This document shows positions 7,812 to 36,570 of a stretch of DNA of 64,000 bases, piece after piece. The notes beneath the pieces are model-generated. The model had not been told where the DNA came from, ran no database searches, and saw only the letters and a list, made by a program, of their open reading frames with translations. The DNA is from Pseudomonadota bacterium. GTDB taxonomy: Bacteria > Pseudomonadota > Gammaproteobacteria > Pseudomonadales > Ketobacteraceae. Positions within the stretch are counted from its first letter, which is position 1; each line of letters starts with the position of its first letter. The translations under genes were made by a program, and so were the position numbers. Location of the stretch: the NCBI GenBank assembly GCA_052035295.1, contig JBPOHS010000018.1:1-64000 (forward strand). The letters run 5' to 3'.

Positions 7812-8480
7812 TCAGGCGTCTTCGTCGTCTTCATGATCGAGCAGGGCTTCCATGCGTCTGCGGCGCAGGAAATACAGCAGCCCCAGTCCACCTATCCCAC
7901 CGAAGCCCCAGCTGCCGCCGGCACTGTCTTCTGCGTAATGGTGTTCTTCGGTGTAGGTCTCGCCATAGCTGTCGGAATCGTAGAACTGGCCTTCCAGCGG
8001 AATGGGTTCCTGGGCGCTGGTAACCAGTGTGTCGAGGTGTCCACTGCAGCAGGCATCGTACAAGTCGATACGCAGGCGGAAGTGATCGGCCGGGTAGTCA
8101 TCCATCAGGGTGATCATGTGGCTCTGGGCATCACTGTTGGAGTCGCCGTCGATGTAGAACGTCGGGCTGGTAAACAACTCGTGCAGGTTGCCGTTGCCGT
8201 CGACCAGTGACACCACGGTGTAGGCGTAAAGGCCGTAATCCGACAGGTCGTCGGCATCGTAGGTGACTTCGAAACGTGAATAATGCCCGTCGTGATCGTA
8301 GTCATCCAGCAGGTTGATTTCGGCTTCGTAAACGCTGATACCGTTGCTGGCGGAACGCGCGCTGTTCTGCGTCGGCTCCTGATACAGTTTGAATGTCGTC
8401 TGGGGAGTGCTTTCAGCAAAGGTCATTCCACTCATCAGGGTGAGCGAGGCGGCAGCAACAAAAGCTTTCAGGGTGTTCAT
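7812..8480 (-). CDS. secreted acidic low-complexity protein with a GlyGly-CTERM-like C-terminal tail
   Basis: There is a GGAGA RBS and a signal peptide (MNTLKAFVAAASLTLMSGMTFAES). The body is rich in Asp, Tyr and Gly, with D-x-D/DG repeats. The tail is GGSWGFGGIGGLGLLYFLRRRR followed by 13 acidic residues. Confidence 0.5.
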   Translation of the reverse strand: MNTLKAFVAAASLTLMSGMTFAESTPQTTFKLYQEPTQNSARSASNGISVYEAEINLLDDYDHDGHYSRFEVTYDADDLSDYGLYAYTVVSLVDGNGNLHELFTSPTFYIDGDSNSDAQSHMITLMDDYPADHFRLRIDLYDACCSGHLDTLVTSAQEPIPLEGQFYDSDSYGETYTEEHHYAEDSAGGSWGFGGIGGLGLLYFLRRRRMEALLDHEDDEDA

Positions 8481-8642
8481 GAAGAGTCTCCAGGTTGACC
8501 CCTTTATTTCGCGCTTTCCCGCATTAATCGTTCCTGAATGTTATGCCGTGAAAGTGTTCAGGAAACGTTCAGTGCTTTTTTCATAGACTGTATTCGTGTT
8601 GTAAACCCATGCATCTTGGTAAAAGACGAAGGAGCGAGTGTC

Positions 8643-9044
8643 ATGAGCACTCAGTTTGGCAAGTGGTTACTGGCGGGTGTGGTGGCGGTGTCGGCAACGA
8701 TGGCGAACCAGAGCGCGCAGGCTTATGGCGATGGCACCGCAGAAGCGATGGTGACCGGCTTGGCCATTGGCGCGGTGGCTGCGACGCTGGTGAGAGATGA
8801 CACGCACCATCACGATCGTCACACTACCTATCGTGAAGTGCATCACTACTATGATGAGCCACGTTATCACCGGCACGACAGGTACTGTGGTCATCGGGTG
8901 CGCGTCGACCATTATTATGGTGGCGGCCATCATCACGGCCATCGTGGTTGGGATCGCTATGATGATCATGGTGGTCATCACGGCGGCCACCACGGCGGAG
9001 GACACTATGATCGTGGACGCTCGGTGATCGTAAACCATTTTTAA
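8643..9044 (+). CDS. secreted His/Tyr/Arg/Asp/Gly-rich low-complexity protein (putative metal-binding)
   Basis: The AAGGAG RBS lies 8 nt upstream of ATG 8643. The track ORF starts at 8538 but has no RBS there. There is a signal peptide (MSTQFGKWLLAGVVAVSATMANQSAQA). The mature part is dominated by H, Y, R, D and G (HHHDRH..., GGGHHHGHRGW, DDHGGHHGGHHGGGHYDRG). Confidence 0.55.
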   Translation: MSTQFGKWLLAGVVAVSATMANQSAQAYGDGTAEAMVTGLAIGAVAATLVRDDTHHHDRHTTYREVHHYYDEPRYHRHDRYCGHRVRVDHYYGGGHHHGHRGWDRYDDHGGHHGGHHGGGHYDRGRSVIVNHF

Positions 9045-9080
9045 TAAGGTCCTGAAGCTTTCAACCAGGCCTTCCGTTCA

Positions 9081-9112
9081 GGCGCTGGCCCGCGTGGCCA
9101 GCGCCTTTTTTT
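9081..9112 (+). terminator. rho-independent terminator after the His-rich protein gene
   Basis: A perfect 10-bp stem, GGCGCTGGCC-cgcgt-GGCCAGCGCC, is followed by TTTTTTT. Confidence 0.6.
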
Positions 9113-9156
9113 ATGATTTTTCAGAGGGTTTTCGGAAATCTGAACAGCGGTGCGAA

Positions 9157-10407
9157 TCAGTGTTTCAGTCGCTGGGCCAGTACCGTCATCAGCACGCCAG
9201 AGGTGAGCGTCAAACTGCTCAGATAAATAATGGCCATTGAAAAACTGTTGGTCGAGCTGGCCAGATAGCCCGTGACCACCGGCCCGAGTCCGCCGCCCAG
9301 AAACACACCCAAACCGTTATAAATGCCGCCGGCCTGCGTGTTGAGATGGGCTGGCACAATGCGCTGCAACAAGGCGAATTCGGCGCTGTTGAACGCGCAC
9401 GAAAAAAATACCGCCCCACTCAATACCATGACGGAATCCCACAAGCCTCCGGTGCTGGCCGCAAAAAAACAGCTGCCGCCGGTGAAGACATAGGACAATG
9501 CGGCCAACTGACAGCGTCGATCTGTTTTGTCGCCCAGCCACGACCACAACAACAGACCGAGCAATGAAAACCCGTAGGGAATGGTGAGCGCCCAACTCAG
9601 GCTGGCGTAGGCAACGCCTTTTTCCTGGGTAAGCCAGGTGGGCATCCAGCTGACGATGCCATACACCAGAATGTAATGCGCTGCGGCAGCCAGGGAGAGA
9701 ATGATGAAATCCGGTGTGAGCAGCAGTTGTTTGAGCGTGCGGCTATCGTCGACTTGTGCTTCTGCTTGTGCCGTTTCGATGTAAGTGCGTTCTTGTTCAG
9801 AAATGCGTGGATGCGTGGCGGGTGTGTCATGCACAAAGTAATACACCAGTGGCCACGAGAGCAACGTGCCCGCCATGGCAATAACGACGAAGCTGATGCG
9901 CCACCCCCAGGCTTCGGTCAACGGCACCAGCACCAGTGGCCCCAGCAGCATGGCGAGGAACATGCCCGACGCCCACAGGCTGTTGCCGCGACTGCTTTCC
10001 TGCGGCGGAAACCACTGCTTCGACAGCGCGTTCATCATCGGGAAATGCGGGCTTTCCGCGAGGCCCAGCAGCACCCGGGCCAGCAGGAACAAGCCCAGTG
10101 TCTGTGTTGCCAGCGGGCCCATGCAGGTAAAGACCGACCAGAGCAGGATCACGGTCAACAGGATTTTCCGGGGGCCGAATCGCTGAACGAACGGCGTCAG
10201 GAAAATATTGGCCAGACCGTAGGCGATAAAGAAAATGCTCATCAACCAGCCGCCTTGCTTGGCGGTTTGCTCGGCGGTCCAGCCAAAATCGGCGGCAATC
10301 TTGGGCATGGCATAGGTGATGTTCATGCGGTCGAACAGCGACACCACAATGGTGAACGCAAGAACGATGCCCAATTTCCAGCGGGCATTATGAGTGACGA
10401 TTGCCAT
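9157..10407 (-). CDS. MFS transporter
   Basis: It has about 12 predicted TM segments and an MFS-like G-x-L-x-D-R-x-G-x-R-style loop (FVQRFGPRKILL). ATG 10407 is preferred over the TTG at 10413. It overlaps the helicase stop by 1 nt. Confidence 0.75.
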   Translation of the reverse strand: MAIVTHNARWKLGIVLAFTIVVSLFDRMNITYAMPKIAADFGWTAEQTAKQGGWLMSIFFIAYGLANIFLTPFVQRFGPRKILLTVILLWSVFTCMGPLATQTLGLFLLARVLLGLAESPHFPMMNALSKQWFPPQESSRGNSLWASGMFLAMLLGPLVLVPLTEAWGWRISFVVIAMAGTLLSWPLVYYFVHDTPATHPRISEQERTYIETAQAEAQVDDSRTLKQLLLTPDFIILSLAAAAHYILVYGIVSWMPTWLTQEKGVAYASLSWALTIPYGFSLLGLLLWSWLGDKTDRRCQLAALSYVFTGGSCFFAASTGGLWDSVMVLSGAVFFSCAFNSAEFALLQRIVPAHLNTQAGGIYNGLGVFLGGGLGPVVTGYLASSTNSFSMAIIYLSSLTLTSGVLMTVLAQRLKH

Positions 10408-12356
10408 TACCAATCCCCATCGAGCAAGGAATCAAACACATTGCCCCGGGCAATGCCACTGCCAAACCCCTTCACCTGATGGTCGACCAGGGCAGGCGGC
10501 AGATATTCCAGAAAATACGGTGAACCCACGCTGTGGGCATAAGAGCCGCCATGAAATACGGTGTGGCTGTCTTCCCCGGCGCGGCTGATGAACAATTCGT
10601 TTTGGGCGCGGGTGAGTGCAACGTAAAGGATGCGGCGCTCTTCTTCTTCGGCGTCCTGGTCGCCCAGGCTGCGTACGTGCGGGTATACGCCGGGTTGCAC
10701 GCCAATGCAATAACAGACGGGCGCTTCGGTGCCCTTGGCGCTGTGTACCGTGATCAGTGTCACAGCATCGTCGGTTTCGCTGGTCTCTTCTTCAGTGTTG
10801 TTGACGGGGTCGAGTGTGTAGGCCTCAACGAACGTCAACAAGTCTTTGTAACGACTGGCCAGCTCGGCAAGCAGCCGCAGGTCGGCGGCGCGCGATTCCC
10901 AGCGATCGTAACGGTTGGCATAAGTGCCATTCATGTGCTGGGTGGCGACGCGCAGGGCAATTTGCGGTTCGGCCCGGTATTGCAATATCAGTTTGACGCC
11001 TTGCAGGATGTCATCGCGCTTGGGCAAGGCTGTTTCGAGCACCGTCAATACGTCGGTGGCGGGGTCGGCCTTGAGCAGGGCATCGACGGTGCGGGCGGCG
11101 GTGACATCACCAATCTTGGGCCAGAATTTGAGATAACGCATCCACGCGAGTTCGTCGCGTTTGTTGAGGGCGCAACGGGCAAGACTGAGCAGATCCTTCA
11201 CGTGTGCGGCTTCGAGCAGGCTGGTGCCGCCGATGAATTTGTACGGGATTTCGTGATCGATGAGTGCGCCTTCCACCGTTTTGGCGCTCCAGGCCGAACG
11301 GGTGAGAATCATGTGGTCGGCCCAGCGTGCACCACCTTCATGACGCTGCATAAGATCTTGTGAAATCCAGTAGGCTTCGTCGCTTTTGGTTTCGAAATCA
11401 ATCAGGACCGGCTTTTGCCCCTTGCCCCGGTGTGCGTGTAATTCCTTGGCATAGTGCAGCGGGGATTGCGCCAGCAGCCAGTTGGCGATGTCGAGAATGC
11501 CCTGGGTGCTGCGATAGTTTTCCTGCAGTTTGAGCACGTCCGCACCGGGCAGACGCTGGCGAAATTCATGGACGTTGCGGAAATCCGCGCCGCGAAAGGC
11601 GTAAATCGATTGCGCATCGTCGCCGACGCAAAACAGGTGGGCTTCGCTCAGCAATTCGAGAATGCGCCATTGCAGCGGATTGGTGTCCTGCATTTCATCA
11701 ACCAGAATATGCAGGAACAACTTGGCGACCTTGTCACGCAGGGCCGGGCGTTTTTCCAATCCCTGTACGAACAGGTGCAGGATATCGTCGTAATCGAGGT
11801 ACTGGCGATCCTGTTTGCGTTGCTCGTAAGCCTTGGCAATATCGGTGATGAGTTTGGTCGTACCCTCATCGTGCTCGGTGTGACGATGCAGATAGTCGTC
11901 GATGCCCAGGCAGCAGTTTTTGGCGTAAGAAACGTAGTTGAGCAGGATCGCAGCCTTGGGGAAATCCTTTTGCCGCTTTTTCTCGACGTGTTCGCCGCGC
12001 AACAATTGCAACAGGCTCTGGGCGTCGTCGCGATCAATGATGGTGGCGGTTTCCAGCCCGAATGCCTGCGGAATCCGCCGCATGATCTGCAGACAAAAAT
12101 GATGGAACGTGCCGGCGGTGACCTGATCTGCCACCGGGCCGACCTCGCTTCGCAGCCGGTGTAACATTTCGCGTGAGGCGCGACGGGTAAACGTGAGCAG
12201 CAGCATTCGCTCGGCGGGTACGCCCTGACGGATCAGGTGGGTGACGCGGCCAATGAGGGTGCGGGTCTTGCCGGTACCAGCGCCTGCGAGCACCAGCAAA
12301 TGGCGGGCGGGGCCGGCGTAATGGGCAGCGGCGCTTTGTTCGGCGTTGAGATCCAT
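10407..12356 (-). CDS. UvrD/Rep-family ATP-dependent DNA helicase
   Basis: The Walker A motif LAGAGTGKTRTL, motif II ILVDEMQDTN and the rest of the SF1 helicase layout are present. The protein is 649 aa. Confidence 0.8.
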   Translation of the reverse strand: MDLNAEQSAAAHYAGPARHLLVLAGAGTGKTRTLIGRVTHLIRQGVPAERMLLLTFTRRASREMLHRLRSEVGPVADQVTAGTFHHFCLQIMRRIPQAFGLETATIIDRDDAQSLLQLLRGEHVEKKRQKDFPKAAILLNYVSYAKNCCLGIDDYLHRHTEHDEGTTKLITDIAKAYEQRKQDRQYLDYDDILHLFVQGLEKRPALRDKVAKLFLHILVDEMQDTNPLQWRILELLSEAHLFCVGDDAQSIYAFRGADFRNVHEFRQRLPGADVLKLQENYRSTQGILDIANWLLAQSPLHYAKELHAHRGKGQKPVLIDFETKSDEAYWISQDLMQRHEGGARWADHMILTRSAWSAKTVEGALIDHEIPYKFIGGTSLLEAAHVKDLLSLARCALNKRDELAWMRYLKFWPKIGDVTAARTVDALLKADPATDVLTVLETALPKRDDILQGVKLILQYRAEPQIALRVATQHMNGTYANRYDRWESRAADLRLLAELASRYKDLLTFVEAYTLDPVNNTEEETSETDDAVTLITVHSAKGTEAPVCYCIGVQPGVYPHVRSLGDQDAEEEERRILYVALTRAQNELFISRAGEDSHTVFHGGSYAHSVGSPYFLEYLPPALVDHQVKGFGSGIARGNVFDSLLDGDW

Positions 12357-12423
12357 CGGGATAAAGGTATGGTTATTTGTTCAGTGGTCGCCCATGGTAG
12401 CGCCTCTGTGGCCGGATGGGAAT

Positions 12424-12453
12424 GCCAAAGAAAGGGCCCTGCAAGCAGGGCCC
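12424..12453 (-). terminator. probable intrinsic terminator downstream of the beta-helix/cytochrome lipoprotein gene
   Basis: A 9-bp perfect stem, GGGCCCTGC-ttg-GCAGGGCCC (minus-strand sense), is followed by TTTCTTTGG. Confidence 0.4.
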
Positions 12454-12512
12454 GGAGAGGGCGTCCTTGCCCTCGACAGCTTATGGCTGTGCAGACGATG
12501 CAGATGAGTGCA

Positions 12513-15131
12513 TCAGTCGGTGCAGGTCGCGTCTGGCAGACTGTTGATCCAGGCTTCCAGCAGTTCGACGCCTTCGGCATGCGCGAGTCCACGTCCGACG
12601 GGTGGCATGCGATCGCCAGCGTCAGTGGTTTGCACGCGGTAGCGCATGATCGATTCGGCAGCGTTGCCCGGTACCACGTCATAACTCAGTGATCCACCAC
12701 CAAAGGCGACCGGACGACGACAGGCACCGTGGGCACTGCCATCACCATAAGGGCGCCAGTATTCCAGGAACAGCCCCGTATTGGAGGCGTTACCTTCGGG
12801 ACGGTGGCAATGCGAACAGTTGATATCGAGATAGCCTTTGGCCGTGTCCATCAATTCTTCGTCAGTCATGGTATCGAGGTCGGCGGCATTGGCATCGGTG
12901 TAGACGGGCACGGTCTCAATGGATTCCAGATCCCCCGGGACATCTTCAAGCCAACCTTCGTTAACCCAATGCGTCAGCTGGTTTTCGGTGGTGTCGCCGT
13001 AGTCGTAATCCTTGTTGAGGTGTCTGGCTTTCGGCCCGATCGGCGTGATGGCGCTGGAAGAGCCGCCGTCGGCAATCTGGTGACACTGTTTGCAGTTGTT
13101 GATTGACGGAACTGCATAGGTGAAATCGGTCGGCGTGCCGTCGAGCGTGATCGTCTTGTCGATGTTTTTGCCTGCCACTGTCAACACGGCATCGCTCTTC
13201 GACGCATTCCACACATAGGGCAGGGCAACCCAACCTGCTTCACGGTGTATCAGCAACCGTGTTTCCACGAGTTCCTCGCTGGTCTCGTCAACAGCGTTGG
13301 TGGCTGGCAGGGCAAAGGTTTTGACAATGACCGAGCCAACGGGGAAATCAACGACTTCCTGATCGCTGTAAGTGGCCGTGCCACCCGGTGGAACGAAGAT
13401 ATAGCGATATTTGTGGGAATAATCGGTAAACAACTGCGTGTTCAGATCGTACGGAATGCCGCCACTGCGCGCCGCCCCTTTGGGGTTGGTGGCATCGACA
13501 AACAAACGGTAGTTCGACAGGTTGTTGCAGTTGGTGGAAAGCAGTGCATCCCAGTTGACTTCGCTCGCTGTGCCAGCGGTGCAGAGGTTGGCATTCTCGC
13601 TGTCGGTGTCATCACCTGCGCCGAGATCGCCTTCATCGCTCAACGGATCGCCGCTGCCGCAGTTTCTGTGATTGTCATCAATACCGCAGCCGTGCATGTC
13701 CCCGCCGATGATAACGGCGTGAATGGGGAGCGGCGCTTGTGAGCAGTTCAGCAGATCTTCTTGCGGGTCTTCAATGAGCGCATCGCCATTGACGACATCC
13801 AGCGACGTTTCCAGATACTGACCAACACTGGCATCACCATTGTTCTGGAAGCAGACGTTGTCGCTGCCGTCTTCGGCAAGTGGAACCTCGGAGATACTAT
13901 CTTCAACGGTCTCCGCTCCCAGCGTGTTAAATAGTGCTTCAGCCGCACCATCATAGATAAGGGCTGGCATCGAACCACCGTCGCCAGTGTATCTCTCGAT
14001 GAGGTCTTCGATGAGGTAGCCGCGTGGATTGCTACCGCTATCACTGACATCGTTGTCATGCACATGCACGTTGCGCGGCAAGGGGCGCCAACCGTCTGCA
14101 ATGGCTTGACCCGGTTGGGCATAATTCGCCAGGAACACACCGAGGTCTGACTCGGCAATCAGGAAGCTGGCGATCGCCACGGCGAGGGTGTCGTGGTTTT
14201 TGATCTCGTTGCGGAAGATCTCGACATCCTTGGTGGACAGCACGATAACGCCAGTGCCGGGGGGCGTGATGTGAACGCCGGCCGGGTTGGAGCTTTGGTT
14301 GGCGAAATTGTCAGTGTTGTTGTCTGTGACTTCGTTGTCAAAAACACGGACACCGCTGCCGTAATTGTGGTTGCCGATCGGCAGGTCGAACACCAGGATG
14401 CCGCCGGTATTGCCGGTAGCGACGTTGTTGTAGACATCGGCATACATCGAGTTCTCGATTTCAATGCCGGCAACGTTTTCCTCGGCGGTATTGTTACGCA
14501 CGACGATATATCTTGACTGCCCAACGTAAACGCCTGCGTCAGCGGAACCGCGCACATAGCTGTTTTCGATCAGGACGTTCTGGCATTCCACTGGATACAG
14601 GCCGTAAGCGCCATTACCCGGATCCGGTTCACCCGCCCAGACCGTGCCAATGCGGTTGATATGAATCCCGTTCGAATTCTTGAGCTTTATCGCGTTGTTC
14701 TTGGCTTCGTTGACAGAGAAATCCTGCAACGTGATGCCAACGGCGTTCTCGATGAAAATACCGTCGGTGGCGACCGTGGCGTCCGCGTAATCCAGTACGG
14801 TTTCCTCGCGGCCGTAGCCTGCGATGGTGATGTTGCGCGCGATCAGCTGGTCGCCATCGGTATCACCGTCGAAGGTGAGCGTGGTGTTGAGCTTGAACGT
14901 GCCTTTGGGCAGGACAATGTAGTCTCCGCTTTTGGCTTCTATCAGGGCTTTGTTGATGTTTTCTCCGACATCCCCTTCCTTGGAAACATAGATTGCTCCC
15001 GTGGGAAAGCTGACGCCGTCGTCGTTGTCATTGCTGTCACCGCTTCCGCAGCTGATCAGCAGCGGAGTCTGAAGCGCAAGCAGCAGTGCTCCGTACTTGA
15101 GTTTGTGGTTGTGAGCCGGATTTGGTTTCAT
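12513..15131 (-). CDS. lipoprotein joining a right-handed parallel beta-helix region (about 600 aa) to a C-terminal domain with two CXXCH haem-binding motifs (putative c-type dihaem)
   Basis: The lipobox is LLISC|GSG. Repetitive beta-helix-type N/G/V-rich turns appear throughout (NAIKLKNSNGIHINR, GSADAGVYVGQSRYIVVRNN, TGNTGGILVFD...). CKQCH is encoded at 13080-13094 and CSHCH at 12804-12818, about 90 aa apart, followed by an MPP motif. Confidence 0.7.
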   Translation of the reverse strand: MKPNPAHNHKLKYGALLLALQTPLLISCGSGDSNDNDDGVSFPTGAIYVSKEGDVGENINKALIEAKSGDYIVLPKGTFKLNTTLTFDGDTDGDQLIARNITIAGYGREETVLDYADATVATDGIFIENAVGITLQDFSVNEAKNNAIKLKNSNGIHINRIGTVWAGEPDPGNGAYGLYPVECQNVLIENSYVRGSADAGVYVGQSRYIVVRNNTAEENVAGIEIENSMYADVYNNVATGNTGGILVFDLPIGNHNYGSGVRVFDNEVTDNNTDNFANQSSNPAGVHITPPGTGVIVLSTKDVEIFRNEIKNHDTLAVAIASFLIAESDLGVFLANYAQPGQAIADGWRPLPRNVHVHDNDVSDSGSNPRGYLIEDLIERYTGDGGSMPALIYDGAAEALFNTLGAETVEDSISEVPLAEDGSDNVCFQNNGDASVGQYLETSLDVVNGDALIEDPQEDLLNCSQAPLPIHAVIIGGDMHGCGIDDNHRNCGSGDPLSDEGDLGAGDDTDSENANLCTAGTASEVNWDALLSTNCNNLSNYRLFVDATNPKGAARSGGIPYDLNTQLFTDYSHKYRYIFVPPGGTATYSDQEVVDFPVGSVIVKTFALPATNAVDETSEELVETRLLIHREAGWVALPYVWNASKSDAVLTVAGKNIDKTITLDGTPTDFTYAVPSINNCKQCHQIADGGSSSAITPIGPKARHLNKDYDYGDTTENQLTHWVNEGWLEDVPGDLESIETVPVYTDANAADLDTMTDEELMDTAKGYLDINCSHCHRPEGNASNTGLFLEYWRPYGDGSAHGACRRPVAFGGGSLSYDVVPGNAAESIMRYRVQTTDAGDRMPPVGRGLAHAEGVELLEAWINSLPDATCTD

Positions 15132-15361: not shown

Positions 15362-15396
15362 AAAAAAGGCGGGGCATTGGAGTGCCTCGCCTTTTT
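15362..15396. terminator. bidirectional rho-independent terminator ending the chemosensory-like operon
   Basis: AAAAAA-GGCGGGGCA-ttggag-TGCCTCGCC-TTTTT. The stem has one G-U wobble and a U-tract on both strands. Confidence 0.6.
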
Positions 15397-15414: not shown

Positions 15415-18400
15415 TCAGCTTGCCTTGGCAAATACCGGTGGGGTGATGTAGTACTGATCCGGCAGCGTGATCAGGATAATGAAACCACGGAAATCGTCGG
15501 TCTCTGCACCCTGGTCGAGGATCAGGTCGATGCCGCCGCCCACCGAGATGAGGAATTGCTTGACCGCATCCATGCCGACACCGCGCCCCGACACTTCCGA
15601 TACCTGATCGGTGGTCGAGAAGCCGGAGGCGAAGATGTAATTGGCAATGGTGTCTGCGGGTGGGCGTGGTGCGTCAGCCGGGTACAGGCCGCGCTCGACG
15701 GCTTTCTCATAGATCTTGCTGAGGGCAAGGCCACGGCCGTTATCCAGCACGGCGATGGTGACCTTGCCTTCCTTGCAGGCCGTGTTGATCCACACCGTAC
15801 CTTGTTCGGGCTTGCCTTTGGCTATGCGTTCTTCGGGCGACTCGATGCCATGATCCATGGAATTGCGCAGCAAGTGCATGAAGATATTGCTCAGAATGCC
15901 ATGGGCTTCGCCGCGGATGTAAACATTGCCGTGGTTGACGACGATATTGGGTTCGGCACGACCGATTTCCTTGGCGAGGGAAGTGGCAGAATGAATGACA
16001 TCGCCGATCACATCACCAATGGTTTTGGCTTCGACCGAGGCCAGCATGTTGTAGGTTTCCCTCACTACGCTGGCAACGTTGGATGGCAGCTTCTCGCCGG
16101 ACAGCTCGGTAATCTTCTGCAGTAGTGCCGAGGCGTGTTGCTTGTCGATACGTACTGCCGGGCCACCGCTGGTGCCGCGCCCGAGTTTTTCCTTGAAGAT
16201 GGAGTTGTATCGGCTGATGACCTGTTCACCAGTTTCCAGTTCGGCCAGCAGTTGTTCTTTCTGCCACTCAGACTCGTCGTTCTTACGCAGCTGATCGTAG
16301 GTGTTTTCGATCTTGTGCACCGTTTCGGTGATGTGCTTGAGCCCGTAAGTGCGCGCGTTGCCCTTGACCGTGTGAATGTTGCGGAACAGCTCGGCAATCT
16401 TGTCTTTGTCTTTCTCTTCGGTTTCCTGAATGATGTTGCGGCACTGGTCGACAAAATGGTACGAACCATTGATGAACTCGTTGAACTTCTCGCCATCGAC
16501 GGCCAGGATTTCGCCGATCATCATCAGCTCTTGTTTCTGACCTTCGGCTTCCGCCTGCAAGGCTTTCAGTTCGGTGACGTCGCGTACAGTAACCATCAGT
16601 TTGGTCACGACATCGTTTTCGTCGGTGATTGGGTCCCAATCCAGTTCAAGCAACTTGTCCGACTTGCCGTCGAACTTGAGTGTCAGCTCTTTGGCCAGCA
16701 GGTGCGAGTTGAACTCGTACATCATCGAGTCTTCGCCCACAATCGAGGAAACCGACGTGGTGGCGGCGTCGATAACGTCGACGCTGAGTGTCGAGTTGCG
16801 GAACAGCAAATCCACGAAGTTGCGGTTCGCGATGTTCGGTGTTTCGAAAATCGTTTCCAGATACGCGGCATATTCGGGGTGTATCAGGCCACCTTCGATA
16901 ATCGTGAACAGGCCCTGGTGCATGTTCGAGAGCATGTTCGCGATATCTTCGTTTTTCTGCTTCAGGGCGGCAGTACGTTCCTCGACTTTTTTCTCCAGGT
17001 TGCGGTTGTGTTCTTCGATCACTTCCACCATGCGGATGTTCTTGATGGTTGTCACCAAAGAGACCGCCACCGATGACACGAACTCGTAATCGCTGTCGGC
17101 AAAGGCCACGTTCTTGGTGTCGCCTGAGAAGTTCATGACACCAATGAGTATGTCCTTGTCGACCAGGGGAACGCAGAGCAGGGCGCGCGGCTTGTCCTTT
17201 TCGCCGGCCACATAGTGTTTGTCCTTGCTGGTATCCTGCACGAATATCGCTTTTTTGGATTCTGCGGCGCGACCAATGATGCCCTGACCCATGGTGAACG
17301 TGATCGCGCGATGCTCGCCCTCGGTCGCCATCGGCGGCAGAAACGCCTTGGCTTCCAGTTCGTGCGTTTTATTGAACAGATAGACAGATCCCTGCTCGAT
17401 ACCGATCTTGTCGGCCATGGCATGCAGCACCTCATCCAGCGCGGTATTCTGATCGCGCGCAGCGGCAAGGGTGCCACCAATCTTGTTGAGCTTGGCCAGG
17501 TCGATCATCTTCTTACGAATGGCCAGACGCATGGAGTTGAAGTTCTGGGTCGCGAGAATGAACAGCACAATCATGATGGCGATCGTACTCTTGAAGCCGA
17601 AACTCAGGCTGTCGCTCAATTCGGTCTGCAAGCGCATGAAAGTGGTATCTGCCGCTGCGAGAAGGTCATCAAGGCCATTGACCGATTTGCCGACCGTGGT
17701 TTTGGATTCGTTCAGTTTGATCTTGGCGGTTTCAATTTGCGTCAGCTCTTCGCGTTTGAATGAGACTAATCCGGGTTCCGCGTTGATGCCCGACTCAAGC
17801 GCTTTCAGCATGTCTCGGCTATTGGCCACCAGCCCATCCTTGTCAAAGGTGTTCATGTACTGGTCCACCATGTCGAGGGAGCGGGTCGTATCAGACATGA
17901 CGTAGTTCATATCGTCGACGGCCGTGTCGAGACGCGCCAGATCCGATGTGCGCTGGATTTCCTGCACCGTTTTTGACATGTTCGAAAGATAGGAATCGGC
18001 CTGGTTGGCGTTGCCGGCGGCTACTTCCATGTCTTTCGTATGTTCTGGTGGCGCCTGGTAATAAACGATGTCCATGTAGGAGTTGCCGACGTCATCGGCT
18101 TTCTGGATCAGATCGGCGGCCGCGTCATCGGTTTTCTTTTTGGCAATCAATTGGGCCAGTTTGGCGTCAAACATGGCATTGACCGCGACCTTGTATTCCT
18201 CGTAATTCTTTTTGATATCAGCGACCTGATTGCGCATCGCTTCGTCGTCTTTGGCCAGTGCTTCAAGCTTGTTGAACACGTCACTGAACTCAGCAGCGCC
18301 TTTCTCGAAGTCGTCATGGTAGGGTTTGATTTCGTCCTCAGTCAGCGCGTTGTAACCCAGAGCGCTGACGTTGGCGAGCTTCAATAGTTGAATCTGCACC

Positions 18401-18564
18401 TGGTTTGCAACGCGCACCACCGGCACGGCAGTTTCCGAGACCCGTTTGTTCGAGTCGCTGATGTCGTTCAGGTTCCAGAGTGAGTTTGAACCCGAGATCG
18501 CCAACAGCAAAAGTATGATGGCAAATCCCAGCCCGACTTTTTGGTTAAAACTGAGGTTAAGCAT
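15415..18564 (-). CDS. membrane-bound chemosensory-type histidine kinase: periplasmic helical sensor (between two TM helices), GAF, HPt (CheA P1-like) and CheA-type HATPase; no P2 or P5/CheW-like domain
   Basis: 1049 aa. TM1 is VGLGFAIILLLLAISG and TM2 is STIAIMIVLFILA near residue 330. The GAF region is ITFTMGQGIIGRAAESKKAIFVQD...LLCVPLV. The HPt region is ELFRNIHTVKGNARTYGL. The CheA-like N box is HLLRNSMDHGIE, with DNGRGL and GRGVGMDAV. The protein ends about 40 aa after the G2 box. Confidence 0.75.
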   Translation of the reverse strand: MLNLSFNQKVGLGFAIILLLLAISGSNSLWNLNDISDSNKRVSETAVPVVRVANQVQIQLLKLANVSALGYNALTEDEIKPYHDDFEKGAAEFSDVFNKLEALAKDDEAMRNQVADIKKNYEEYKVAVNAMFDAKLAQLIAKKKTDDAAADLIQKADDVGNSYMDIVYYQAPPEHTKDMEVAAGNANQADSYLSNMSKTVQEIQRTSDLARLDTAVDDMNYVMSDTTRSLDMVDQYMNTFDKDGLVANSRDMLKALESGINAEPGLVSFKREELTQIETAKIKLNESKTTVGKSVNGLDDLLAAADTTFMRLQTELSDSLSFGFKSTIAIMIVLFILATQNFNSMRLAIRKKMIDLAKLNKIGGTLAAARDQNTALDEVLHAMADKIGIEQGSVYLFNKTHELEAKAFLPPMATEGEHRAITFTMGQGIIGRAAESKKAIFVQDTSKDKHYVAGEKDKPRALLCVPLVDKDILIGVMNFSGDTKNVAFADSDYEFVSSVAVSLVTTIKNIRMVEVIEEHNRNLEKKVEERTAALKQKNEDIANMLSNMHQGLFTIIEGGLIHPEYAAYLETIFETPNIANRNFVDLLFRNSTLSVDVIDAATTSVSSIVGEDSMMYEFNSHLLAKELTLKFDGKSDKLLELDWDPITDENDVVTKLMVTVRDVTELKALQAEAEGQKQELMMIGEILAVDGEKFNEFINGSYHFVDQCRNIIQETEEKDKDKIAELFRNIHTVKGNARTYGLKHITETVHKIENTYDQLRKNDESEWQKEQLLAELETGEQVISRYNSIFKEKLGRGTSGGPAVRIDKQHASALLQKITELSGEKLPSNVASVVRETYNMLASVEAKTIGDVIGDVIHSATSLAKEIGRAEPNIVVNHGNVYIRGEAHGILSNIFMHLLRNSMDHGIESPEERIAKGKPEQGTVWINTACKEGKVTIAVLDNGRGLALSKIYEKAVERGLYPADAPRPPADTIANYIFASGFSTTDQVSEVSGRGVGMDAVKQFLISVGGGIDLILDQGAETDDFRGFIILITLPDQYYITPPVFAKAS

Positions 18565-18722
18565 TCCTGCGTGTCCGTATTCAGTAGTGAAGAGTTACGG
18601 TGACAAAGACATTGATAGCCATCTATCAGATTAGACGATTAATTCGAAATTTCAGCCACAAAGTGCATGTTGGTGGGTGGCGTTTGTCGACGTGCGGTCA
18701 ATCGGGGGCGTCATAAACAAAC

Positions 18723-18742
18723 AACCCCGCCGAAGCGGGGTT
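18723..18742 (-). terminator. hairpin (possible attenuator or terminator) between cheY and the kinase gene
   Basis: An 8-bp perfect stem, AACCCCGC-ttcg-GCGGGGTT (minus sense), is followed by GTTTGTTTAT. The U-tract is weak. Confidence 0.3.
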
Positions 18743-18779
18743 GGTATTCGCAAAATGCGAAAGAAAAAACCAATGCTTA

Positions 18780-19148
18780 TCAGCCGGTTACCAGTTTCTG
18801 GATCGCACCCAGAGCGTTGGCACCATTGAATGGCTTCACGATCCAGCCTTTTACGCCAGCGGCTTTACCGCGGTTTTTCATGTTGGGATCATTTTCGGTG
18901 GTCAGCATGATGATGTTGACGTTCTGGTTGCCCAGTTCGCTGCGCACCTTCTCAACCATCGTCAAGCCATCCATGTTGGGCATGTTGACGTCAGAGATGA
19001 TCAGTTTCAGCTCGCGGTCAGCCTTGATTTTCGCAAGGCCATCCTTGCCGTCCACGGCGGTTTCCACATTAAAATTTTTCGATTTCAGGAAGGCGCTCAC
19101 TTCATTGCGGATTGCGGCGCTGTCATCAACTACGAGTATCTGGGCCAT
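18780..19148 (-). CDS. CheY-like single-domain response regulator
   Basis: 122 aa. All receiver residues are present: DD (VVDDS), the phospho-Asp (IISDVNMP), T (LTTE) and K (VKPF). Confidence 0.85.
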   Translation of the reverse strand: MAQILVVDDSAAIRNEVSAFLKSKNFNVETAVDGKDGLAKIKADRELKLIISDVNMPNMDGLTMVEKVRSELGNQNVNIIMLTTENDPNMKNRGKAAGVKGWIVKPFNGANALGAIQKLVTG

Positions 19149-19205
19149 TTTGAATTTCCTTCGTTGTCGCTTACCAACGGTTGATCATGTGCTGACGATT
19201 TGAGT

Positions 19206-20198
19206 TTAGAACATTTCCAGACATCCGCTCTCGACGAGTTCTTCCACGGTGTTTTCGTCCGCTTCCTGATACTCTTCGGGGTTCCAGCGAATGTTGAAGA
19301 CAAATTTCTGATAAAGGGTGACCGGCATCAGTTTGCCGAGTTTGTCCTTCAGGGTGTACTTGAAGCAAAGCTGAGAGCGATCCGTACCAAAGGAAATATA
19401 TTCCTTGTATTGGTTGACAGTGATGGGTACGAATATTTTTACAGTGCGTTCGTGATCGGGCGGGAACAGCGAAATCAGGCGGGTGCGCAAGCCGCCCCAG
19501 GCCTGATTGGAAATTTCACTGAGCATGCCCATGACATCACGAAAATCGATGTTTTCCGGGGGAATGGAGGTGCGCCCGTCTTCGATCAACGAAATCATCG
19601 GGACTTCTTCGGATTGCACCATCATGTAGCCGACAAACCAGGGCGATTCGACCGGGAGCAGGCTGAGAATGTCACCCCAGACCAATTTGTCTTTCACCAG
19701 GTACGGCAGGTCCATCGTTACTTCAATGTCATGGAACAATGACGCCAATGCGCTGGTGGTGACTTCTTCGATGCGGCGAATCAGTGAAATCGGGTATTCG
19801 GTGTCTGCCAGATACTGATCTACCAATGCTGTCAGCTTCGACATGTCCTCAAGGGTATAGGTGCCGGTAATGCATTTTTGTTGCTCTTCCGGAATATCCC
19901 CGAAAACCGTGCCATCTTCGAGGCGCATGAAGATCGGCAGTTCCTTGCGAACGCGCTTGATGCGTTGCGCCAGCTCAAATCCGTTGGTCAGGCCTTCCGC
20001 ACTGTCATGGCTTTTCTCTGACAGCAGGATCGCGCCGAGATCGGAATTGGTATACAGCATTTTCATGCTGGAATCGCTGGTTTGTTTGACACCGACCAGA
20101 CCGCTGGTTGCACAAAATTCCTTGAGCGCTATCTGGGCAGAAGGGTTTTCCTCAAATATAAGGACTTTGGAAACCAGTCTCTTTTCGAATCCTATCAT
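19206..20198 (-). CDS. hypothetical protein with an N-terminal degenerate receiver-like domain and a C-terminal CheC/CheX-like segment
   Basis: The preferred start is ATG 20198 (MIGFEK...). The track start at 20393 would overlap the upstream gene by 143 nt. The receiver-like fold has EE in place of DD (VLIFEEN) and no clear phospho-Asp. The C-terminal segment has EISNQAWGGLRTRLISLFPP, which aligns with ELSNSFCGNLKRMLQGTCPP in the neighbouring protein and fits the E-x2-N...P CheC/CheX signature. Confidence 0.45.
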   Translation of the reverse strand: MIGFEKRLVSKVLIFEENPSAQIALKEFCATSGLVGVKQTSDSSMKMLYTNSDLGAILLSEKSHDSAEGLTNGFELAQRIKRVRKELPIFMRLEDGTVFGDIPEEQQKCITGTYTLEDMSKLTALVDQYLADTEYPISLIRRIEEVTTSALASLFHDIEVTMDLPYLVKDKLVWGDILSLLPVESPWFVGYMMVQSEEVPMISLIEDGRTSIPPENIDFRDVMGMLSEISNQAWGGLRTRLISLFPPDHERTVKIFVPITVNQYKEYISFGTDRSQLCFKYTLKDKLGKLMPVTLYQKFVFNIRWNPEEYQEADENTVEELVESGCLEMF

Positions 20199-20250
20199 GT
20201 GCGTGCCATTTGGTAGTGAATGTGTCGGGGACAATGCCTGAGGAACCAAT

Positions 20251-20838
20251 TCAGAATAGTTCAAGCTCGCCGGAATTGTCGACTTCGCTCTCGGCTTCAA
20301 TATCCTGGTAATGCGGAAGTTTGAAGTCCTGCGGATCCTGCAGGGCGACGAATACGCTCGCACTGAAAATCGGGGGTTCGGAATAATCCGCAATGGCGCA
20401 GCGGTGCTGTTGGTGAGTCATCTTCAGCACGTTGTCCAGCGTCAGGCACGAACGGTCGAGCAAATTGGGCGTCGACATGCCGAGGGGAGGGCAGGTACCT
20501 TGCAGCATGCGTTTCAAATTGCCGCAGAAACTGTTGCTCAGTTCCAGCAGATAATCCAGATAAGCCGTTTCATCGAGGTCTTCTGCCTTGATGGAAAGCG
20601 CATCGGCGACAAACTGCTTCGTGGTCTTGTTCATGCTCAGGTGCAACAAGCACATGAGGCGGAATTTGAACGAGGAAATGGTCAGCACGATACAGTGATC
20701 GTTGACGATGCTGGTGAGTGAGTCGGCCGACTTGAAAGACCAGCTGGTATTCGGGGCGCAGGTCTTGAGCGTCTGCTCCAGCGATTTCTGCAGAATCTTG
20801 CCAAGCGCCAAACCAGTATCGTTATGGACCGTTGCCAT
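20251..20838 (-). CDS. CheC/CheX-family-like protein (putative CheY-P phosphatase)
   Basis: 195 aa. DYLLELSNSFCGN...PP matches D-x3-E-x2-N-(x)n-P of the CheC/CheX/FliY phosphatases. Its start is 3 nt after the MCP stop. Confidence 0.4.
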   Translation of the reverse strand: MATVHNDTGLALGKILQKSLEQTLKTCAPNTSWSFKSADSLTSIVNDHCIVLTISSFKFRLMCLLHLSMNKTTKQFVADALSIKAEDLDETAYLDYLLELSNSFCGNLKRMLQGTCPPLGMSTPNLLDRSCLTLDNVLKMTHQQHRCAIADYSEPPIFSASVFVALQDPQDFKLPHYQDIEAESEVDNSGELELF

Positions 20839-20841
20839 GGG

Positions 20842-21720
20842 CTATCCGTTGCTAGCGAGTGTATTGTTCAGCGTGTTGATTTGTGATTGAACACTATGTA
20901 TCGCCGTTACAATCATTTTTCCGCCGGCCTGCACGTCCTGGAAGGCGAGTGTGGCAATCAGCGCGTTCTTGTTCAGGTTGGTACGGTAATCTTCGTTGAG
21001 GTTCTGGGCGCGCATCGAGAGTTTTCTGACCTCATCCGCTACCACAGCGAATCCACGACCATGTTCGCCCGCACGCGCCGCTTCAATGGCCGCGTTGAGG
21101 GAGAGAATGCCGATCTGGCCGACGATGCTCTTGAAGTCGCCGATCTGCTTCTGCATGTTCTTGTTGTGCACCATGATGTCTGTCATGCCTTCATGCCAGC
21201 GTTCAATGGTTTCAGTAATGTCGAGGAGTTCCTGCACAGCGTTGCGTACCACGCCAATCTGCTGTTCCAGTTGCTGGTGCGTATATTGGGTCGAGCTGTT
21301 GATCTGGCTCAACTCCTGCTGCAACGACTGACGTGTGTGGCTCAATTCGTCCATCAGCGAGCGCTGGGCTTGTTGCGCCTCAAGTTGCTCCTGGGTCAGG
21401 GTTGAGCGCAGGTTGGATATTTCCCGTTCGCTGTTCTGTTTTTCGTTCAGCAGGATTTCTCGATCCACCATCTGTTGGCGCAACGACTCACTGTTGTTCA
21501 GTCGGGTTTCGAGTTCCCTGATCTTCTTGTCACGGCTGCTGCTGGCCATCCACCAGGTGATCGCACAGCCGAACAGCGCCAGCCCCGCCAGAGCGGGCGT
21601 TAGCCAGCCGGGTGCGCCAGAAGCAACGCTGGAGGCAGCATGACTGATACCGGGCAACGCTGTCAGTACGCTGCCACCGATGGCCATCGCGAGCACGGAG
21701 GTGTTTTGTCGCAACTGCAT
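20842..21720 (-). CDS. methyl-accepting chemotaxis protein, minimal type (membrane anchor, no periplasmic ligand-binding domain)
   Basis: The MCP signalling-domain core is [32 protein letters not shown]. Two hydrophobic segments lie within the first 60 aa. The protein is 292 aa. Confidence 0.8.
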
Positions 21721-25386: not shown

Positions 25387-26682
25387 TCAGCGTGCCAGCG
25401 ATGCTACCGTTTGCGAGACGTTTTCTGCGCCCAGCCGGATTTCTTCAATGACGGCGGCGGCGCGGTTGATCAACTCACTCCCCTCGATGGCCTGATTCCG
25501 CACCTGCTGCATTTGTTCCATCGCCTGATGGGTCAAACCTTCATTGGCGCGCACCATTTCATCAATTTCCACTGTTGACGCATTGGTGCGTGAGGCCAGG
25601 TTCCTTACTTCATCGGCAACCACCGCGAATCCGCGTCCGTGTTCACCGGCGCGTGCTGCTTCAATGGCCGCGTTCAGTGCCAGCAGGTTGGTTTGTTCCG
25701 CAATGCTGCTGATGGTGGTGACAATCGCCGAAATTTCCGCAGATTTTGCATTCAACTGGCTGATGAGCGATGACGCGTCACCGATCTGGTCTGAAATCGC
25801 CTGTGAGATGCTGACACTGTCTTTCAACAGGCGGGTGCCATTCACCGCGATTTGAGCCGTTTCTTCCGAGGTGGTGTTGGCCAGCTCGGCGGCTTGTTGG
25901 GTGGCGATATCCTGATTGGTGCGCGCGGTCACATCGGTAGCGAATTTGATGACCTTGATGACGTTCTGTTCGTCATCGACGACCGGATTGTAAGTGGCTT
26001 CCAGCCAGACGGTTTCCCCGTGCCGGTTGCGCCTGTCGTACTTGCCGCGCTTGAAGCCGCCGCGCGCCAGCTCGCGCCAGAAATCCGGATGTTCCCGGTA
26101 AAATTTGTCATCACAGAACATGCGGTGGTGTTTGCCGCGAATTTCCTCCGCCCGATAACCCATGGTCTGCATGAAATTGTCATTGGCGCTGAGGATGGTG
26201 CCATCGGGCGCAAACTCGATCACGGCCAGGGAACGGTTGAGGGCTTCCAGAATGGATTGCTGGGTCAGCCGCTGTTCGACCTCACGGGTGATGTCCTGGG
26301 CAATCTTGATGATCTTGTACACCTGCCCATCCCGGCTGATCGGGAAGTAGGTCGCCTGCAGCCAGATTTTGCTGCCGTCACGATTGCGTCGGGGGAAGCT
26401 GCCGGTGTGCAGTCTGCCGCTACCCAGATCTGCCCAGAACTGCCGGTAATCGTGGCTGGCGGCGAGCGATTGCGCGCAGAACATGCGGTGATGCTGCCCG
26501 ACAACCTGCTCTTTCGAATAGCCGACCACGGCCAGAAAGGCAGGGTTGGCATCCAGTATCTGGCCATCCCGCGAAAACGCGATGCAGGCATTGTGGTCCC
26601 AGACCCCGTGAACAAAATCGCTGGCATCTGCCAGCGCCGACTCCAGCGTGGCAATGGTCTGTTTGTATTGCTTGAACCACAT
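25387..26682 (-). CDS. soluble methyl-accepting chemotaxis protein with two N-terminal PAS domains (Aer2-like architecture)
   Basis: ATG 26682 has a GAGGAG RBS, whereas the track start at 26712 is TTG. The two PAS repeats each carry G-x-HHRMFC and W-L-x-ATY-x-P blocks. The C-terminal MCP core is [32 protein letters not shown]. No TM segment is present. Confidence 0.85.
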
Positions 26683-26796
26683 ATTCAAATTCTCCTCGGA
26701 GACAGCGAACAAGTCGCCAGGCAGGATCCGTGATGCCGCGACCGCTGGGTTCCCACTTATCGGGAAGGGTGCGACGGCCAGACTATTGAGTGTAGA

Positions 26797-35823: not shown

Positions 35824-35890
35824 GATGATCTGAACCCTGAAGGGGGTGCCCGCCAGCGGGCACAAGCTTCCTTTTTAAATCGCTACCGGT

Positions 35891-36523: not shown

Positions 36524-36570
36524 ATAAATTCAGCGTAGATGATTTTTCCATAAATGCCTGCTTGTCCAAA

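Follow-up and report, generated by a model that had tools for sequence, protein, structure and literature searches.

A CheA-type sensor histidine kinase without a P5 domain, encoded beside CheY, CheX-type and receptor-tip genes in a Ketobacteraceae bacterium

Overview of the module

In our study, a stretch of 64,000 nucleotides from a Pseudomonadota bacterium of the family Ketobacteraceae (GenBank assembly GCA_052035295.1, contig JBPOHS010000018.1, positions 1 to 64,000; hereafter the window) was found to encode a sensor histidine kinase that contained the phosphotransfer and ATP-binding domains of the chemotaxis kinase CheA together with its own membrane sensor, and that was devoid of the CheW-like P5 domain. 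The kinase gene is the last of five minus-strand open reading frames (ORFs), which filled positions 15415-21720 in the ORF listing of the window. In the order of transcription, the other four encoded a protein resembling the tip of a methyl-accepting chemotaxis protein (MCP), a CheX-like protein (CheX1), a protein joining a pseudo-receiver to a CheX domain (X2), and a single-domain CheY. An earlier model-made reading of the same letters and their ORF translations (the sequence-only reading) had placed five genes here, and all five were present. The best reading of the module is a CheW-independent phosphorelay that mixes two-component and chemosensory parts. Its core chain, in which the P5-less kinase would phosphorylate CheY without CheW and the CheX-type proteins would reset it, is on balance probable, and we place much less confidence in any specific role of the MCP-like protein.

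Domain architecture of the kinase

The kinase gene (positions 15415-18564, minus strand) encoded 1049 aa. The protein was modelled with AlphaFold2 from 31 homologues (predicted local distance difference test, pLDDT, 77). It was found to match Pfam 4HB_MCP_1 (E=7.6e-6, with 26.0 bits where the cut-off is 27), GAF, Hpt and HATPase_c, with partial matches to two CheA equivalogs of NCBIfam; neither CheW nor H-kinase_dim was matched in the Pfam and NCBIfam scan. The first transmembrane helix (residues 6-28) was followed by an all-helical periplasmic sensor of about 290 aa (residues 29-321, positions 17602-18480, minus strand), predicted as long helices with a pLDDT of about 90, and by a second transmembrane helix (residues ~322-345). 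The periplasmic domain also matched Pfam CHASE3 (E=4.5e-4), and precomputed TarH (PF02203) matches were present in the homologues of the kinase. The GAF domain (residues 370-503, positions 17056-17457, minus strand) was matched by the Pfam families GAF_2 (E=5e-14) and GAF (E=1.8e-12) and appeared in the model as an alpha/beta domain at residues 372-481. A long signalling helix of 57 residues (residues 490-546 of the model) preceded a second alpha/beta domain (residues 550-662, positions 16579-16917, minus strand), which contained two strands, helices and three strands in that order; this domain had no Pfam match and is called PAS-like from the model alone.

The HPt domain (residues 691-793, positions 16186-16494, minus strand) was recognised by Pfam Hpt (E=5e-9) and formed a bundle of four helices in the model. 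It contained an invariant His731 within FRNIHTVKGNARTYG, and the K734, G735 and N736 residues were likewise invariant among the homologues. This HPt was 32% identical to residues 28-80 of the P1 domain of Escherichia coli CheA. A second candidate, His519 in the signalling helix (EEHNRNLE), of the kind found in dimerisation and histidine phosphotransfer (DHp) domains, was rejected, as it was substituted by Gln or Tyr in homologues. Therefore the HPt holds the only conserved histidine in a phosphotransfer context.

The HPt was followed by a linker that was disordered in the model (residues ~794-807) and by a short hairpin of two helices at the place that P3 has in CheA (residues 808-845, positions 16030-16143, minus strand; helices 808-823 and 828-845 of the model). 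Next to the hairpin was the CheA-type ATP-binding domain, P4 (residues 846-1040, positions 15445-16029, minus strand). It contained the N (HLLRNSMDHGIE), G1 (DNGRG), F (FASGFST) and G2 (GRGVGMDAV) boxes, all of which, together with His731, were invariant in 31 sequences. Profile alignment with hhalign paired residues 834-1040 with residues 314-511 of E. coli CheA, taken from the annotated K-12 record, at a probability of 99.8 and 34% identity. It thus covered the whole of P4 and, starting at CheA residue 314, only the last residues of P3. In a Foldseek search of the PDB, the best single-domain matches were CheA P3P4 and P4 structures (template modelling score of about 0.8 for P4, 32-38% identity), and the P3-like region was contained in an alignment of 256 columns to Thermotoga maritima CheA P3P4 (4xiv) at 30% identity. 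With this alignment to CheA and the Pfam Hpt match, the core was not the ordinary HisKA-coupled ATPase without an HPt that the sequence-only reading had weighed against its own view.

The C-terminus lay 9 residues past P4, and the alignment to CheA stopped at the P4/P5 boundary. A hidden P5 was found neither by Pfam, nor by profile-profile alignment to E. coli CheA, nor in the AlphaFold2 model, and the 120 homologues among the matches listed were all of 1045-1079 aa. The absence of P2 and of a P5/CheW-like domain, which had been proposed from the letters alone, therefore held under both profile search and structure prediction, with nothing after P4 by any of the three methods. The sensor flanked by two transmembrane helices, the GAF domain, the HPt and the CheA-type ATPase of that proposal were also borne out by Pfam and the model; the PAS-like domain and the hairpin had been omitted from it, and the distance from the G2 box to the end, put at about 40 aa, was corrected to 52 aa past G997.

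Comparison with CheA and sensor kinases, and family size

Current surveys describe CheA as the one histidine kinase without its own sensor; a CheW domain was present in 100% of 13,673 CheA sequences, and the core consists of P1, P3, P4 and P5 (Berry, Andrianova and Zhulin 2023, PMC10782961). By the criteria of that study the window kinase is not a CheA, as it has P1, a P3-like region, P4 and its own sensor and is devoid of P2 and P5. Like CheA (E. coli; T. maritima, PDB 1B3Q and 4XIV), it carries the phospho-accepting histidine on a P1-type HPt remote from the catalytic domain and a helical hairpin ahead of a P4 with N, G1, F and G2 boxes. Unlike CheA, it contains neither P5 nor P2, its P3-like hairpin is much shorter, and its N-terminal 690 residues consist of a transmembrane sensor, GAF and PAS-like domains, whereas CheA has no input domain. 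The order of a transmembrane helix, periplasmic helical sensor, transmembrane helix, cytoplasmic GAF and PAS domains and core is that of sensor kinases of the NarX/TorS type; however, the core here is an HPt with a CheA-type ATPase instead of a DHp (HisKA) with an ordinary catalytic and ATP-binding domain. In unorthodox kinases of the TorS type the HPt is C-terminal, after the receiver, whereas here it lies upstream of the ATPase.

The size of the family was examined by HMMER with residues 690-1049 against 1.84 billion representative proteins, and 1,762 representatives were found below E=1e-30. In the best 150 of the 1,762 (E <=3e-54), the match reached to within about 45 residues of the C-terminus, except for two multi-module proteins, and none of the 150 had space for a P5 of about 140 aa. 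Judged from these best 150 of 1,762, the true number of clusters in the family is at least 150 and at most about 1,700, and its named sources include Acidobacteriota and SAR324. In ten members scanned with Pfam, Hpt and HATPase_c were present after HAMP-GAF, sCache-HAMP, 7TMR-DISM, Reg_prop/Y_Y_Y propellers or 4HB-HAMP-GAF. The kinase is not a one-off and belongs to a large P5-less family of HPt and CheA-type ATPase proteins with many input domains. Two giant proteins, P0241 (4858 aa) and P0249 (1950 aa), were matched by the HPt-ATPase query in 15-31 separate stretches, which suggests many repeated HPt-like units before a C-terminal CheA-type ATPase.

Conservation of the module and absence of coupling genes

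A pattern scan based on the kinase alignment was run on 185,579 species genomes and yielded 80 loci, which were taken with flanks of up to 10 kb and searched by tblastn with the five window proteins. The sources were Pseudomonas, Aquipseudomonas, Ketobacteraceae, HdN1, Oleiphilaceae, Hahellaceae, Kangiellaceae, Alteromonadaceae, Marinobacteraceae and several metagenome-assembled genomes (MAGs) of beta- and gammaproteobacteria. The four-gene block of MCP-like protein, CheX1, X2 and CheY adjoined the kinase in 45 of the 80 loci. It was upstream and co-directional in 12 of them, as in the window, divergent in 19, downstream in 13 and convergent in 1. Clustering of 2,664 flanking ORFs gave only five recurrent families, which were the module genes; a sixth conserved gene was rejected, as the remaining recurrent clusters were antisense shadow ORFs or local synteny. 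When X2 was taken as the starting point of the look-up, Oleiphilus messinensis ME102 and a Rhodoferax MAG were found to carry this module as well. The kinases beside the block were of the 4HB-TM-GAF type of about 1050 aa, the HAMP-GAF type of about 970 aa or a type without GAF of about 753 aa, and the PAS-like domain, HPt and ATPase were common to them.

The closest named relative was gamma proteobacterium HdN1, with a kinase 71% identical to that of the window (FP929140.1, ~7831-13138; locus L032). HdN1 was devoid of X2 and contained the other four module genes, with only about 150 bp from cheX1 to cheY. The SAR324 MAG contained only the kinase, X2 and CheY. The block was missing from at least 14 kinase loci whose 10-kb flanks were complete; several of their genomes, such as OZ244969 (L009, L014) and Pleionea sediminis (L048, L040), carried one block next to a different paralogue. 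In the Ketobacteraceae locus L009 (OZ244969.1, 9999-16585), two tandem full-length kinases followed the block, each 60% identical to the window kinase.

CheW, CheR and CheZ gave no tblastn match with E. coli queries in the window or in the 80 loci with their flanks, and no CheW or CheR family was present among the recurrent families of the flanking ORFs. CheB was found once in the same search, in locus L060. The sequence-only reading had reported no cheW, cheR or cheB at the locus, which agreed with the tblastn result for the window; of the cheW/cheR/cheB set that it had named as a refutation if placed immediately outside, only the single cheB was found in the related loci with their flanks. 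A soluble protein of 441 aa with the order PAS-PAS-MCPsignal, similar to BdlA and Aer2, was encoded 3.7 kb upstream of the module (positions 25387-26712, minus strand), and full-length canonical MCP genes adjoined the block in O. messinensis and the Rhodoferax MAG. Because of these genes, ordinary CheA/CheW chemosensory systems are very likely present elsewhere in the genomes of these organisms.

Two further neighbours were seen in related loci. In the SAR324 locus L086 (JADFZZ010000012.1, 6599-15197), the trio was followed by genes for a hybrid kinase, another CheY-like protein (53% identical to the CheY of the module) and a REC-SpoIIE (PP2C) protein, which may be a hint of partner switching as the output. 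Proteins of about 800 aa with a DUF1631 domain were encoded a few kilobases from the module in the Rhodoferax MAG (L082, 1-96 and 1976-4372) and in O. messinensis (L084, CP021425, 16801-19287); DUF1631 was not seen among the window ORFs scanned, and the link with the module may be a coincidence.

CheY and the CheX-type proteins

The cheY gene (positions 18780-19148, minus strand) encoded a single-domain response regulator of 122 aa that matched Pfam Response_reg (E=9e-25) and, as its best NCBIfam match, the CheY equivalog (74 bits against a cut-off of 189). The D8, D9, D53 (in ISDVNMPNMDG), T83/T84 and K105 residues were conserved, and W102 took the place of Tyr106 of the E. coli protein. The site of Asp-Asp-Asp-Thr-Lys was thus complete, as expected of the single-receiver CheY that had been called here, and the NMPNMDG loop was typical of chemotaxis CheYs. 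The protein was 39% identical to E. coli CheY, 65-92% identical between copies of the module and 66% identical to the CheY of the SAR324 MAG.

CheX1 (positions 20251-20838, minus strand; 195 aa) matched Pfam CheX at E=3e-4, which is under the Pfam cut-off. The catalytic motif of the CheX/CheC family is [D/S]-x3-E-x2-N-x22-P; CheX1 contained D95-x3-E99-x2-N102-x21-P124, the last residues of which read G120-M-S-T-P124; E99, N102 and P124 were invariant, and the whole motif was invariant or nearly so in 32-44 homologues. Its PDB profile matches were CheX proteins only, namely 6vpw (E=0.085), 3iic and 3h2d.

X2 (positions 19206-20198, minus strand; 330 aa) was listed as a longer ORF (TTG 20393, 395 aa), which is too long; its start was ATG 20198 (MIGFEK...), in the same place as in all homologues. 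An AlphaFold2 model from 32 homologues (pLDDT 81, predicted template modelling score 0.74) showed a receiver (REC) fold at residues 10-129 and a CheX fold at residues 137-323. Glu61 was present at the phospho-acceptor site of the receiver fold and was kept in at least 90% of the sequences, and the Thr and Lys switch residues were absent; the N-terminal domain is a pseudo-receiver. The Pfam CheX match of X2 was weak (E=9e-3). In its CheX part, E228, N231 and P258 were invariant, the spacing from E-x2-N to P was 26, and the first position of the motif was variable. CheX1 and the CheX part of X2 were aligned by hhalign (E=1.3e-4) with their E-x2-N motifs superposed, so the CheC/CheX alpha-beta fold and the catalytic Glu and Asn are retained in both. 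The earlier assignments of CheX1 as CheC/CheX-like and of X2 as a pseudo-receiver with a CheX part were upheld by these residues and alignments.

The known phosphatases used for comparison were those of the CheX/CheC/FliY family (Borrelia burgdorferi CheX-CheY3, 3HZH; T. maritima CheX, 1XKO; Shewanella CheC-like proteins, 3H2D and 3IIC). Unlike these, X2 is fused to an N-terminal pseudo-receiver, and CheX1 and X2 score below the Pfam CheX cut-off and end in a conserved G-E-L-E-[FLM]-F. Every X2 and CheX1, in all lineages, was found to close with acidic residues followed by G-E-L-E-[FLM]-F at the carboxyl end. The C-terminus of CheX1 here was ...DNSGELELF, and that of X2 was VEELVESGCLEMF in the window and AVDDLVDSGELEFF in Oleiphilaceae, with V-[DE]-[DE]-L-V-[DE]-S present in X2 directly before G-E-L-E-[FL]-F. 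The 80 loci contained 2,664 ORFs of 90 aa or longer, of which the tail terminated 46 X2, 45 CheX1 and 3 of the other 2,573; in the window it closed X2 and CheX1 only. To our knowledge, no tail of the G-E-L-E-[FLM]-F type is known in characterised CheX or CheC proteins. The three other ORFs were small (161-198 aa) with a G-x-[LI]-[ED]-F-[FL] tail (L026, 17482-18045; L062, 3916-4401; L073, 2805-3401) and may be additional CheX-like paralogues.

The X2 tail resembles the C-terminal peptide of E. coli CheZ (...QDQVDDLLDSLGF; QVDDLLDSLGF in the K-12 record) in being acidic, amphipathic and at the extreme C-terminus, with an aromatic last residue. Unlike CheZ, the module contained neither a CheZ fold nor a CheZ tblastn match, and the last six residues of the tail differ. 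The CheZ C-terminal peptide binds the alpha4-beta5-alpha5 face of CheY. By analogy, the tails of CheX1 and X2 would be docking peptides for a common partner, most likely CheY. Covariation of tail residues was dropped as a route to the partner, the penultimate residue (L or M versus F) being switched often and matched only in part between X2 and CheX1, which was not decisive.

The MCP-like protein

The first gene of the block (positions 20842-21720, minus strand) encoded a protein of 292 aa that matched Pfam MCPsignal (E=6.7e-19) over profile positions 25-123 of 172 only. It contained a signal-like or first transmembrane segment at residues ~9-27 and a transmembrane helix at residues ~41-60, separated by about 15 residues. 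Most homologues were of about 253 aa and opened directly with one N-terminal transmembrane helix, and no ligand-binding domain was found; in the window protein, the hydrophobic segment at residues ~9-27 is an extra feature of its clade. Conservation was limited to residues 166-275, about 55 residues to either side of the GRGF turn, and the tip was 50% identical to residues 343-408 (66 aa) of E. coli Tar. The arm from the end of the transmembrane helix to the tip was 154-164 aa long (about 159 aa) in 43 of 44 homologues, as a coiled-coil stalk whose length was kept and whose sequence was not conserved. The C-terminal arm was 66-74 aa in all homologues except one truncated ORF.

Like MCPs such as E. 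coli Tar, the protein possesses a canonical hairpin tip, a membrane anchor and a cytoplasmic coiled coil. Unlike them, it is devoid of a ligand-binding domain and of HAMP, has a C-terminal arm of about 70 aa and is conserved over about 110 aa. It is a membrane-anchored receptor tip only, which cannot sense extracellular ligands or hold paired methylation helices. The minimal MCP described in the sequence-only reading was right in its missing ligand-binding domain and in the two segments seen here; the first segment is, as noted, specific to the clade, and the protein is a stub of the tip. The same reading held that the module inverts the division in which MCPs sense and CheA transduces. The kinase does carry the sensor, and the part given to the MCP was overstated, the protein being a tip stub that is missing from the SAR324 version. 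Because it is absent from the SAR324 module, the MCP-like protein is regarded as accessory and not as the sensing partner.

The tip protein bears on another explanation, in which the block would assist a canonical chemotaxis system whose genes lie in another part of the genome: CheW and a P5-containing CheA would act in trans, the tip would join ordinary receptor arrays, CheY would be phosphorylated mainly by that CheA, the CheX-like proteins would be localised to the array, and the P5-less kinase would be a second input or unrelated. The near-canonical tip, with its identity to Tar, is consistent with this, as are the full-length MCP genes by the block in O. messinensis and Rhodoferax and the PAS-MCP gene of the window. 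The constancy of the stalk length despite the drift of its sequence is also consistent with it; a straight helix of 159 residues would measure about 24 nm by our own estimate, and this length resembles the membrane-to-baseplate reach of 36H-40H receptors. However, the block was tied to the P5-less kinase in 45 loci, across four arrangements, and in no locus to cheA or cheW; the SAR324 kinase occurred with X2 and CheY and without the MCP-like protein; and the HPt and ATP-binding site of the kinase were complete. We therefore consider it unlikely that the block serves a canonical array in this way.

Proposed mechanism and alternative explanations

In the CheW-independent phosphorelay that we prefer, the kinase would read a periplasmic signal, a cytoplasmic signal through its GAF and PAS-like domains, or both. 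The signal would pass to P4 and the HPt through the kinase's own helices, and not through a lattice of receptor, CheW and P5. The CheA-type ATPase would autophosphorylate His731, the P3-like hairpin serving dimerisation of the kinase, and the phosphoryl group would be moved to Asp53 of the 122-aa CheY. CheX1 and X2, tethered by their common tail, would hydrolyse CheY-P with the conserved Glu and Asn, and the signal would be kept short. Several paralogous kinases with differing inputs would feed one CheY block per genome; such many-to-one wiring is probable because at least 14 kinase loci lacked the block and their genomes often had one block elsewhere. The MCP-like protein would not be a sensor; it would serve the block as a scaffold at the membrane or bring it into the receptor arrays of the cell. 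The predicted machinery for fast turnover and the highly conserved CheY point to motility control as a putative output, and the label 'chemotaxis-like' of the sequence-only reading is a guess in this respect.

Several points weigh against this proposal. Gene content, domain folds, catalytic residues, the lack of P5, CheW and CheR and the conserved neighbourhood were observed directly, whereas the steps from P4 to His731 and from His731 to CheY, and the phosphatase activity, are deduced from conserved residues. The output, the many-to-one wiring, the partner of the tails and what the MCP-like protein does are likewise proposals. Dimerisation and trans-phosphorylation are assumed, because the P3-like hairpin, with helices of 16-18 residues, is short and Pfam-negative. 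The likeness of the X2 tail to CheZ is a resemblance of short motifs, and the partner could be the MCP-like protein, the kinase or another protein; the CheX1 tail resembles CheZ in its last residues only and not in the V-[DE]-[DE]-L-[LV]-[DE]-S part. The MCP-like tip is as conserved as that of real receptors and could still be engaged by a CheW or CheA from another part of the genome. The accessory proteins also vary, X2 being absent from HdN1, and CheX1 and the MCP-like protein from SAR324, so that only CheY is universal among them. No target of CheY-P was identified.

The output is the subject of a further explanation, in which CheY and the CheX-like proteins would be a phosphate sink or feedback tuning the kinase, and the output would run through another regulator or the X2 pseudo-receiver towards slow control of biofilm, c-di-GMP or colonisation of hydrocarbon surfaces instead of motility. 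The clustering of flanking ORFs revealed no effector domain or motor gene in any locus, many hosts were marine hydrocarbon degraders (Oleiphilus, HdN1, Ketobacteraceae, Marinobacteraceae) or Kangiellaceae, in SAR324 a REC-SpoIIE phosphatase and another CheY-like protein were encoded after the trio, and the conserved X2 pseudo-receiver with Glu at its acceptor site has no job assigned. CheX-type phosphatases together with a CheY of the NMPNMDG type are, however, typical of fast motility circuits, and the module contains two such phosphatases. The 66% identity of CheY between phyla suggests a conserved protein target and not a sink. A sink, feedback loop or slow output of this kind is quite improbable.

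Three tandem paralogous hybrid kinases of about 970 aa each were encoded about 14 kb away (positions 32935-42334, minus strand), with 7TMR-DISMED2, 7TMR-DISM_7TM, PAS, HisKA, HATPase_c and REC domains in a RetS/LadS-like architecture, and none of them contained an HPt. It is highly improbable that the HPt of the module is a relay from the receivers of such kinases to CheY, with the CheA-type ATPase regulatory or degenerate: the kinase HPt also matched that of TorS (E=2.5e-7) and a hybrid kinase adjoined the trio in the SAR324 locus, but all ATP-binding boxes of P4 were invariant in 31 homologues, the order of HPt, hairpin and P4 was exactly that of CheA, and hybrid kinases were absent from the recurrent neighbours in the 80 loci. 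An ORF of 210 aa without a Pfam match (positions 35891-36523) was present between the first two hybrid kinases.

Novelty and significance

No description of a CheA-type kinase with its own sensor and without P5, or of this gene block, was found in a full-text literature search, some queries of which were poorly phrased. The Geobacter Esn system was considered as a precedent and rejected, as it is a canonical MCP-CheW-CheA set (PMC5585712). The annotations in the source records were generic, such as 'GAF domain-containing protein', 'Hpt domain-containing protein', 'response regulator', 'hypothetical protein' and automatic 'CheA' or 'CheX'. The single parts of the module are all of known kinds, and their combination and the class of P5-less kinases appear to be undescribed.

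The findings describe the catalytic solution of CheA, an HPt histidine with a CheA-type ATPase, as the transmitter of membrane sensors, contrary to surveys in which P5 is universal (PMC10782961). The inputs on such kinases were 4HB, HAMP, GAF, Cache, 7TMR-DISM and beta-propeller domains, and no CheW was present in the searched loci. If the biochemistry holds, the module would be a natural CheW-free system for studying regulation of P1, P3 and P4 of CheA without a receptor lattice, and may give non-chemoreceptor sensors an additional route for setting the level of CheY-P. It would also add two new parts, a tip-only receptor on a stalk of fixed length and a C-terminal docking motif common to two phosphatases, and the automated labels 'GAF domain-containing protein' and 'CheA' would need to be reclassified.

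A broader proposal is more doubtful than the core chain. The P5-less kinases in which an HPt is joined to a CheA-type ATPase would be class II histidine kinases that sense directly, and would make up a large, phylum-spanning class, so far unrecognised, with their own CheY and a REC-CheX phosphatase with a CheZ-like tail. In Gamma- and Betaproteobacteria they would be joined by a receptor tip of ruler length, which would plug the pathway into ordinary arrays or build a CheW-free cluster. Non-chemoreceptor sensors would thereby gain direct access to motility, and the family could be an evolutionary intermediate between sensor kinases and CheA.

Gene layout and neighbouring genes

With X2 starting at ATG 20198, the intergenic gaps were 3, 52, 57 and 215 bp, in agreement with the 3-215 bp given in the sequence-only reading. 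A strong hairpin resembling an intrinsic terminator was present between cheY and the kinase gene (positions 18712-18743, minus strand), as seen by the terminator scan, the RNA fold and reading of the sequence. It ran from 18743 to 18722 of that strand, past the stop codon of cheY and ahead of the start of the kinase gene, with a GC-rich stem of 9 bp, a UUCG loop and a U-rich tail (CAACCCCGC-UUCG-GCGGGGUUG, then UUUGUUUAU). The 86-nt region folded at -32.5 kcal/mol (z=-3.98), which was equalled by none of 200 shuffles. Because of this hairpin, and because the placement of the kinase gene varies between genomes, a single five-gene operon is doubtful; the layout is a four-gene block and a kinase gene that is probably transcribed separately. 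The genes were co-directional, as had been described, and it was their union in one operon that became doubtful.

A second, GC-rich hairpin with an A-run and a T-run on its flanks was present 3' of the kinase gene (positions 15362-15396, no strand assigned). It read AAAAAAGGCGGGGCA..TGCCTCGCCTTTTT and was seen by direct reading of the sequence, in agreement with the terminator placed there before; it was not among the matches of the consensus terminator scan.

The neighbours of the module in the window were housekeeping genes, namely those of a malic enzyme, TerC, a UvrD-like helicase, an MFS protein and a beta-helix lipoprotein. A predicted lipoprotein of 872 aa was encoded immediately downstream of the kinase (positions 12513-15131, minus strand). 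Its N-terminal half was a right-handed beta-helix of the NosD-like kind, and its C-terminal half contained two CxxCH haem-binding motifs (NCKQCH and NCSHCH). A GAF-PAS-GGDEF-EAL protein of 902 aa, which is likely involved in the turnover of c-di-GMP, was encoded at positions 45758-48466 on the minus strand.

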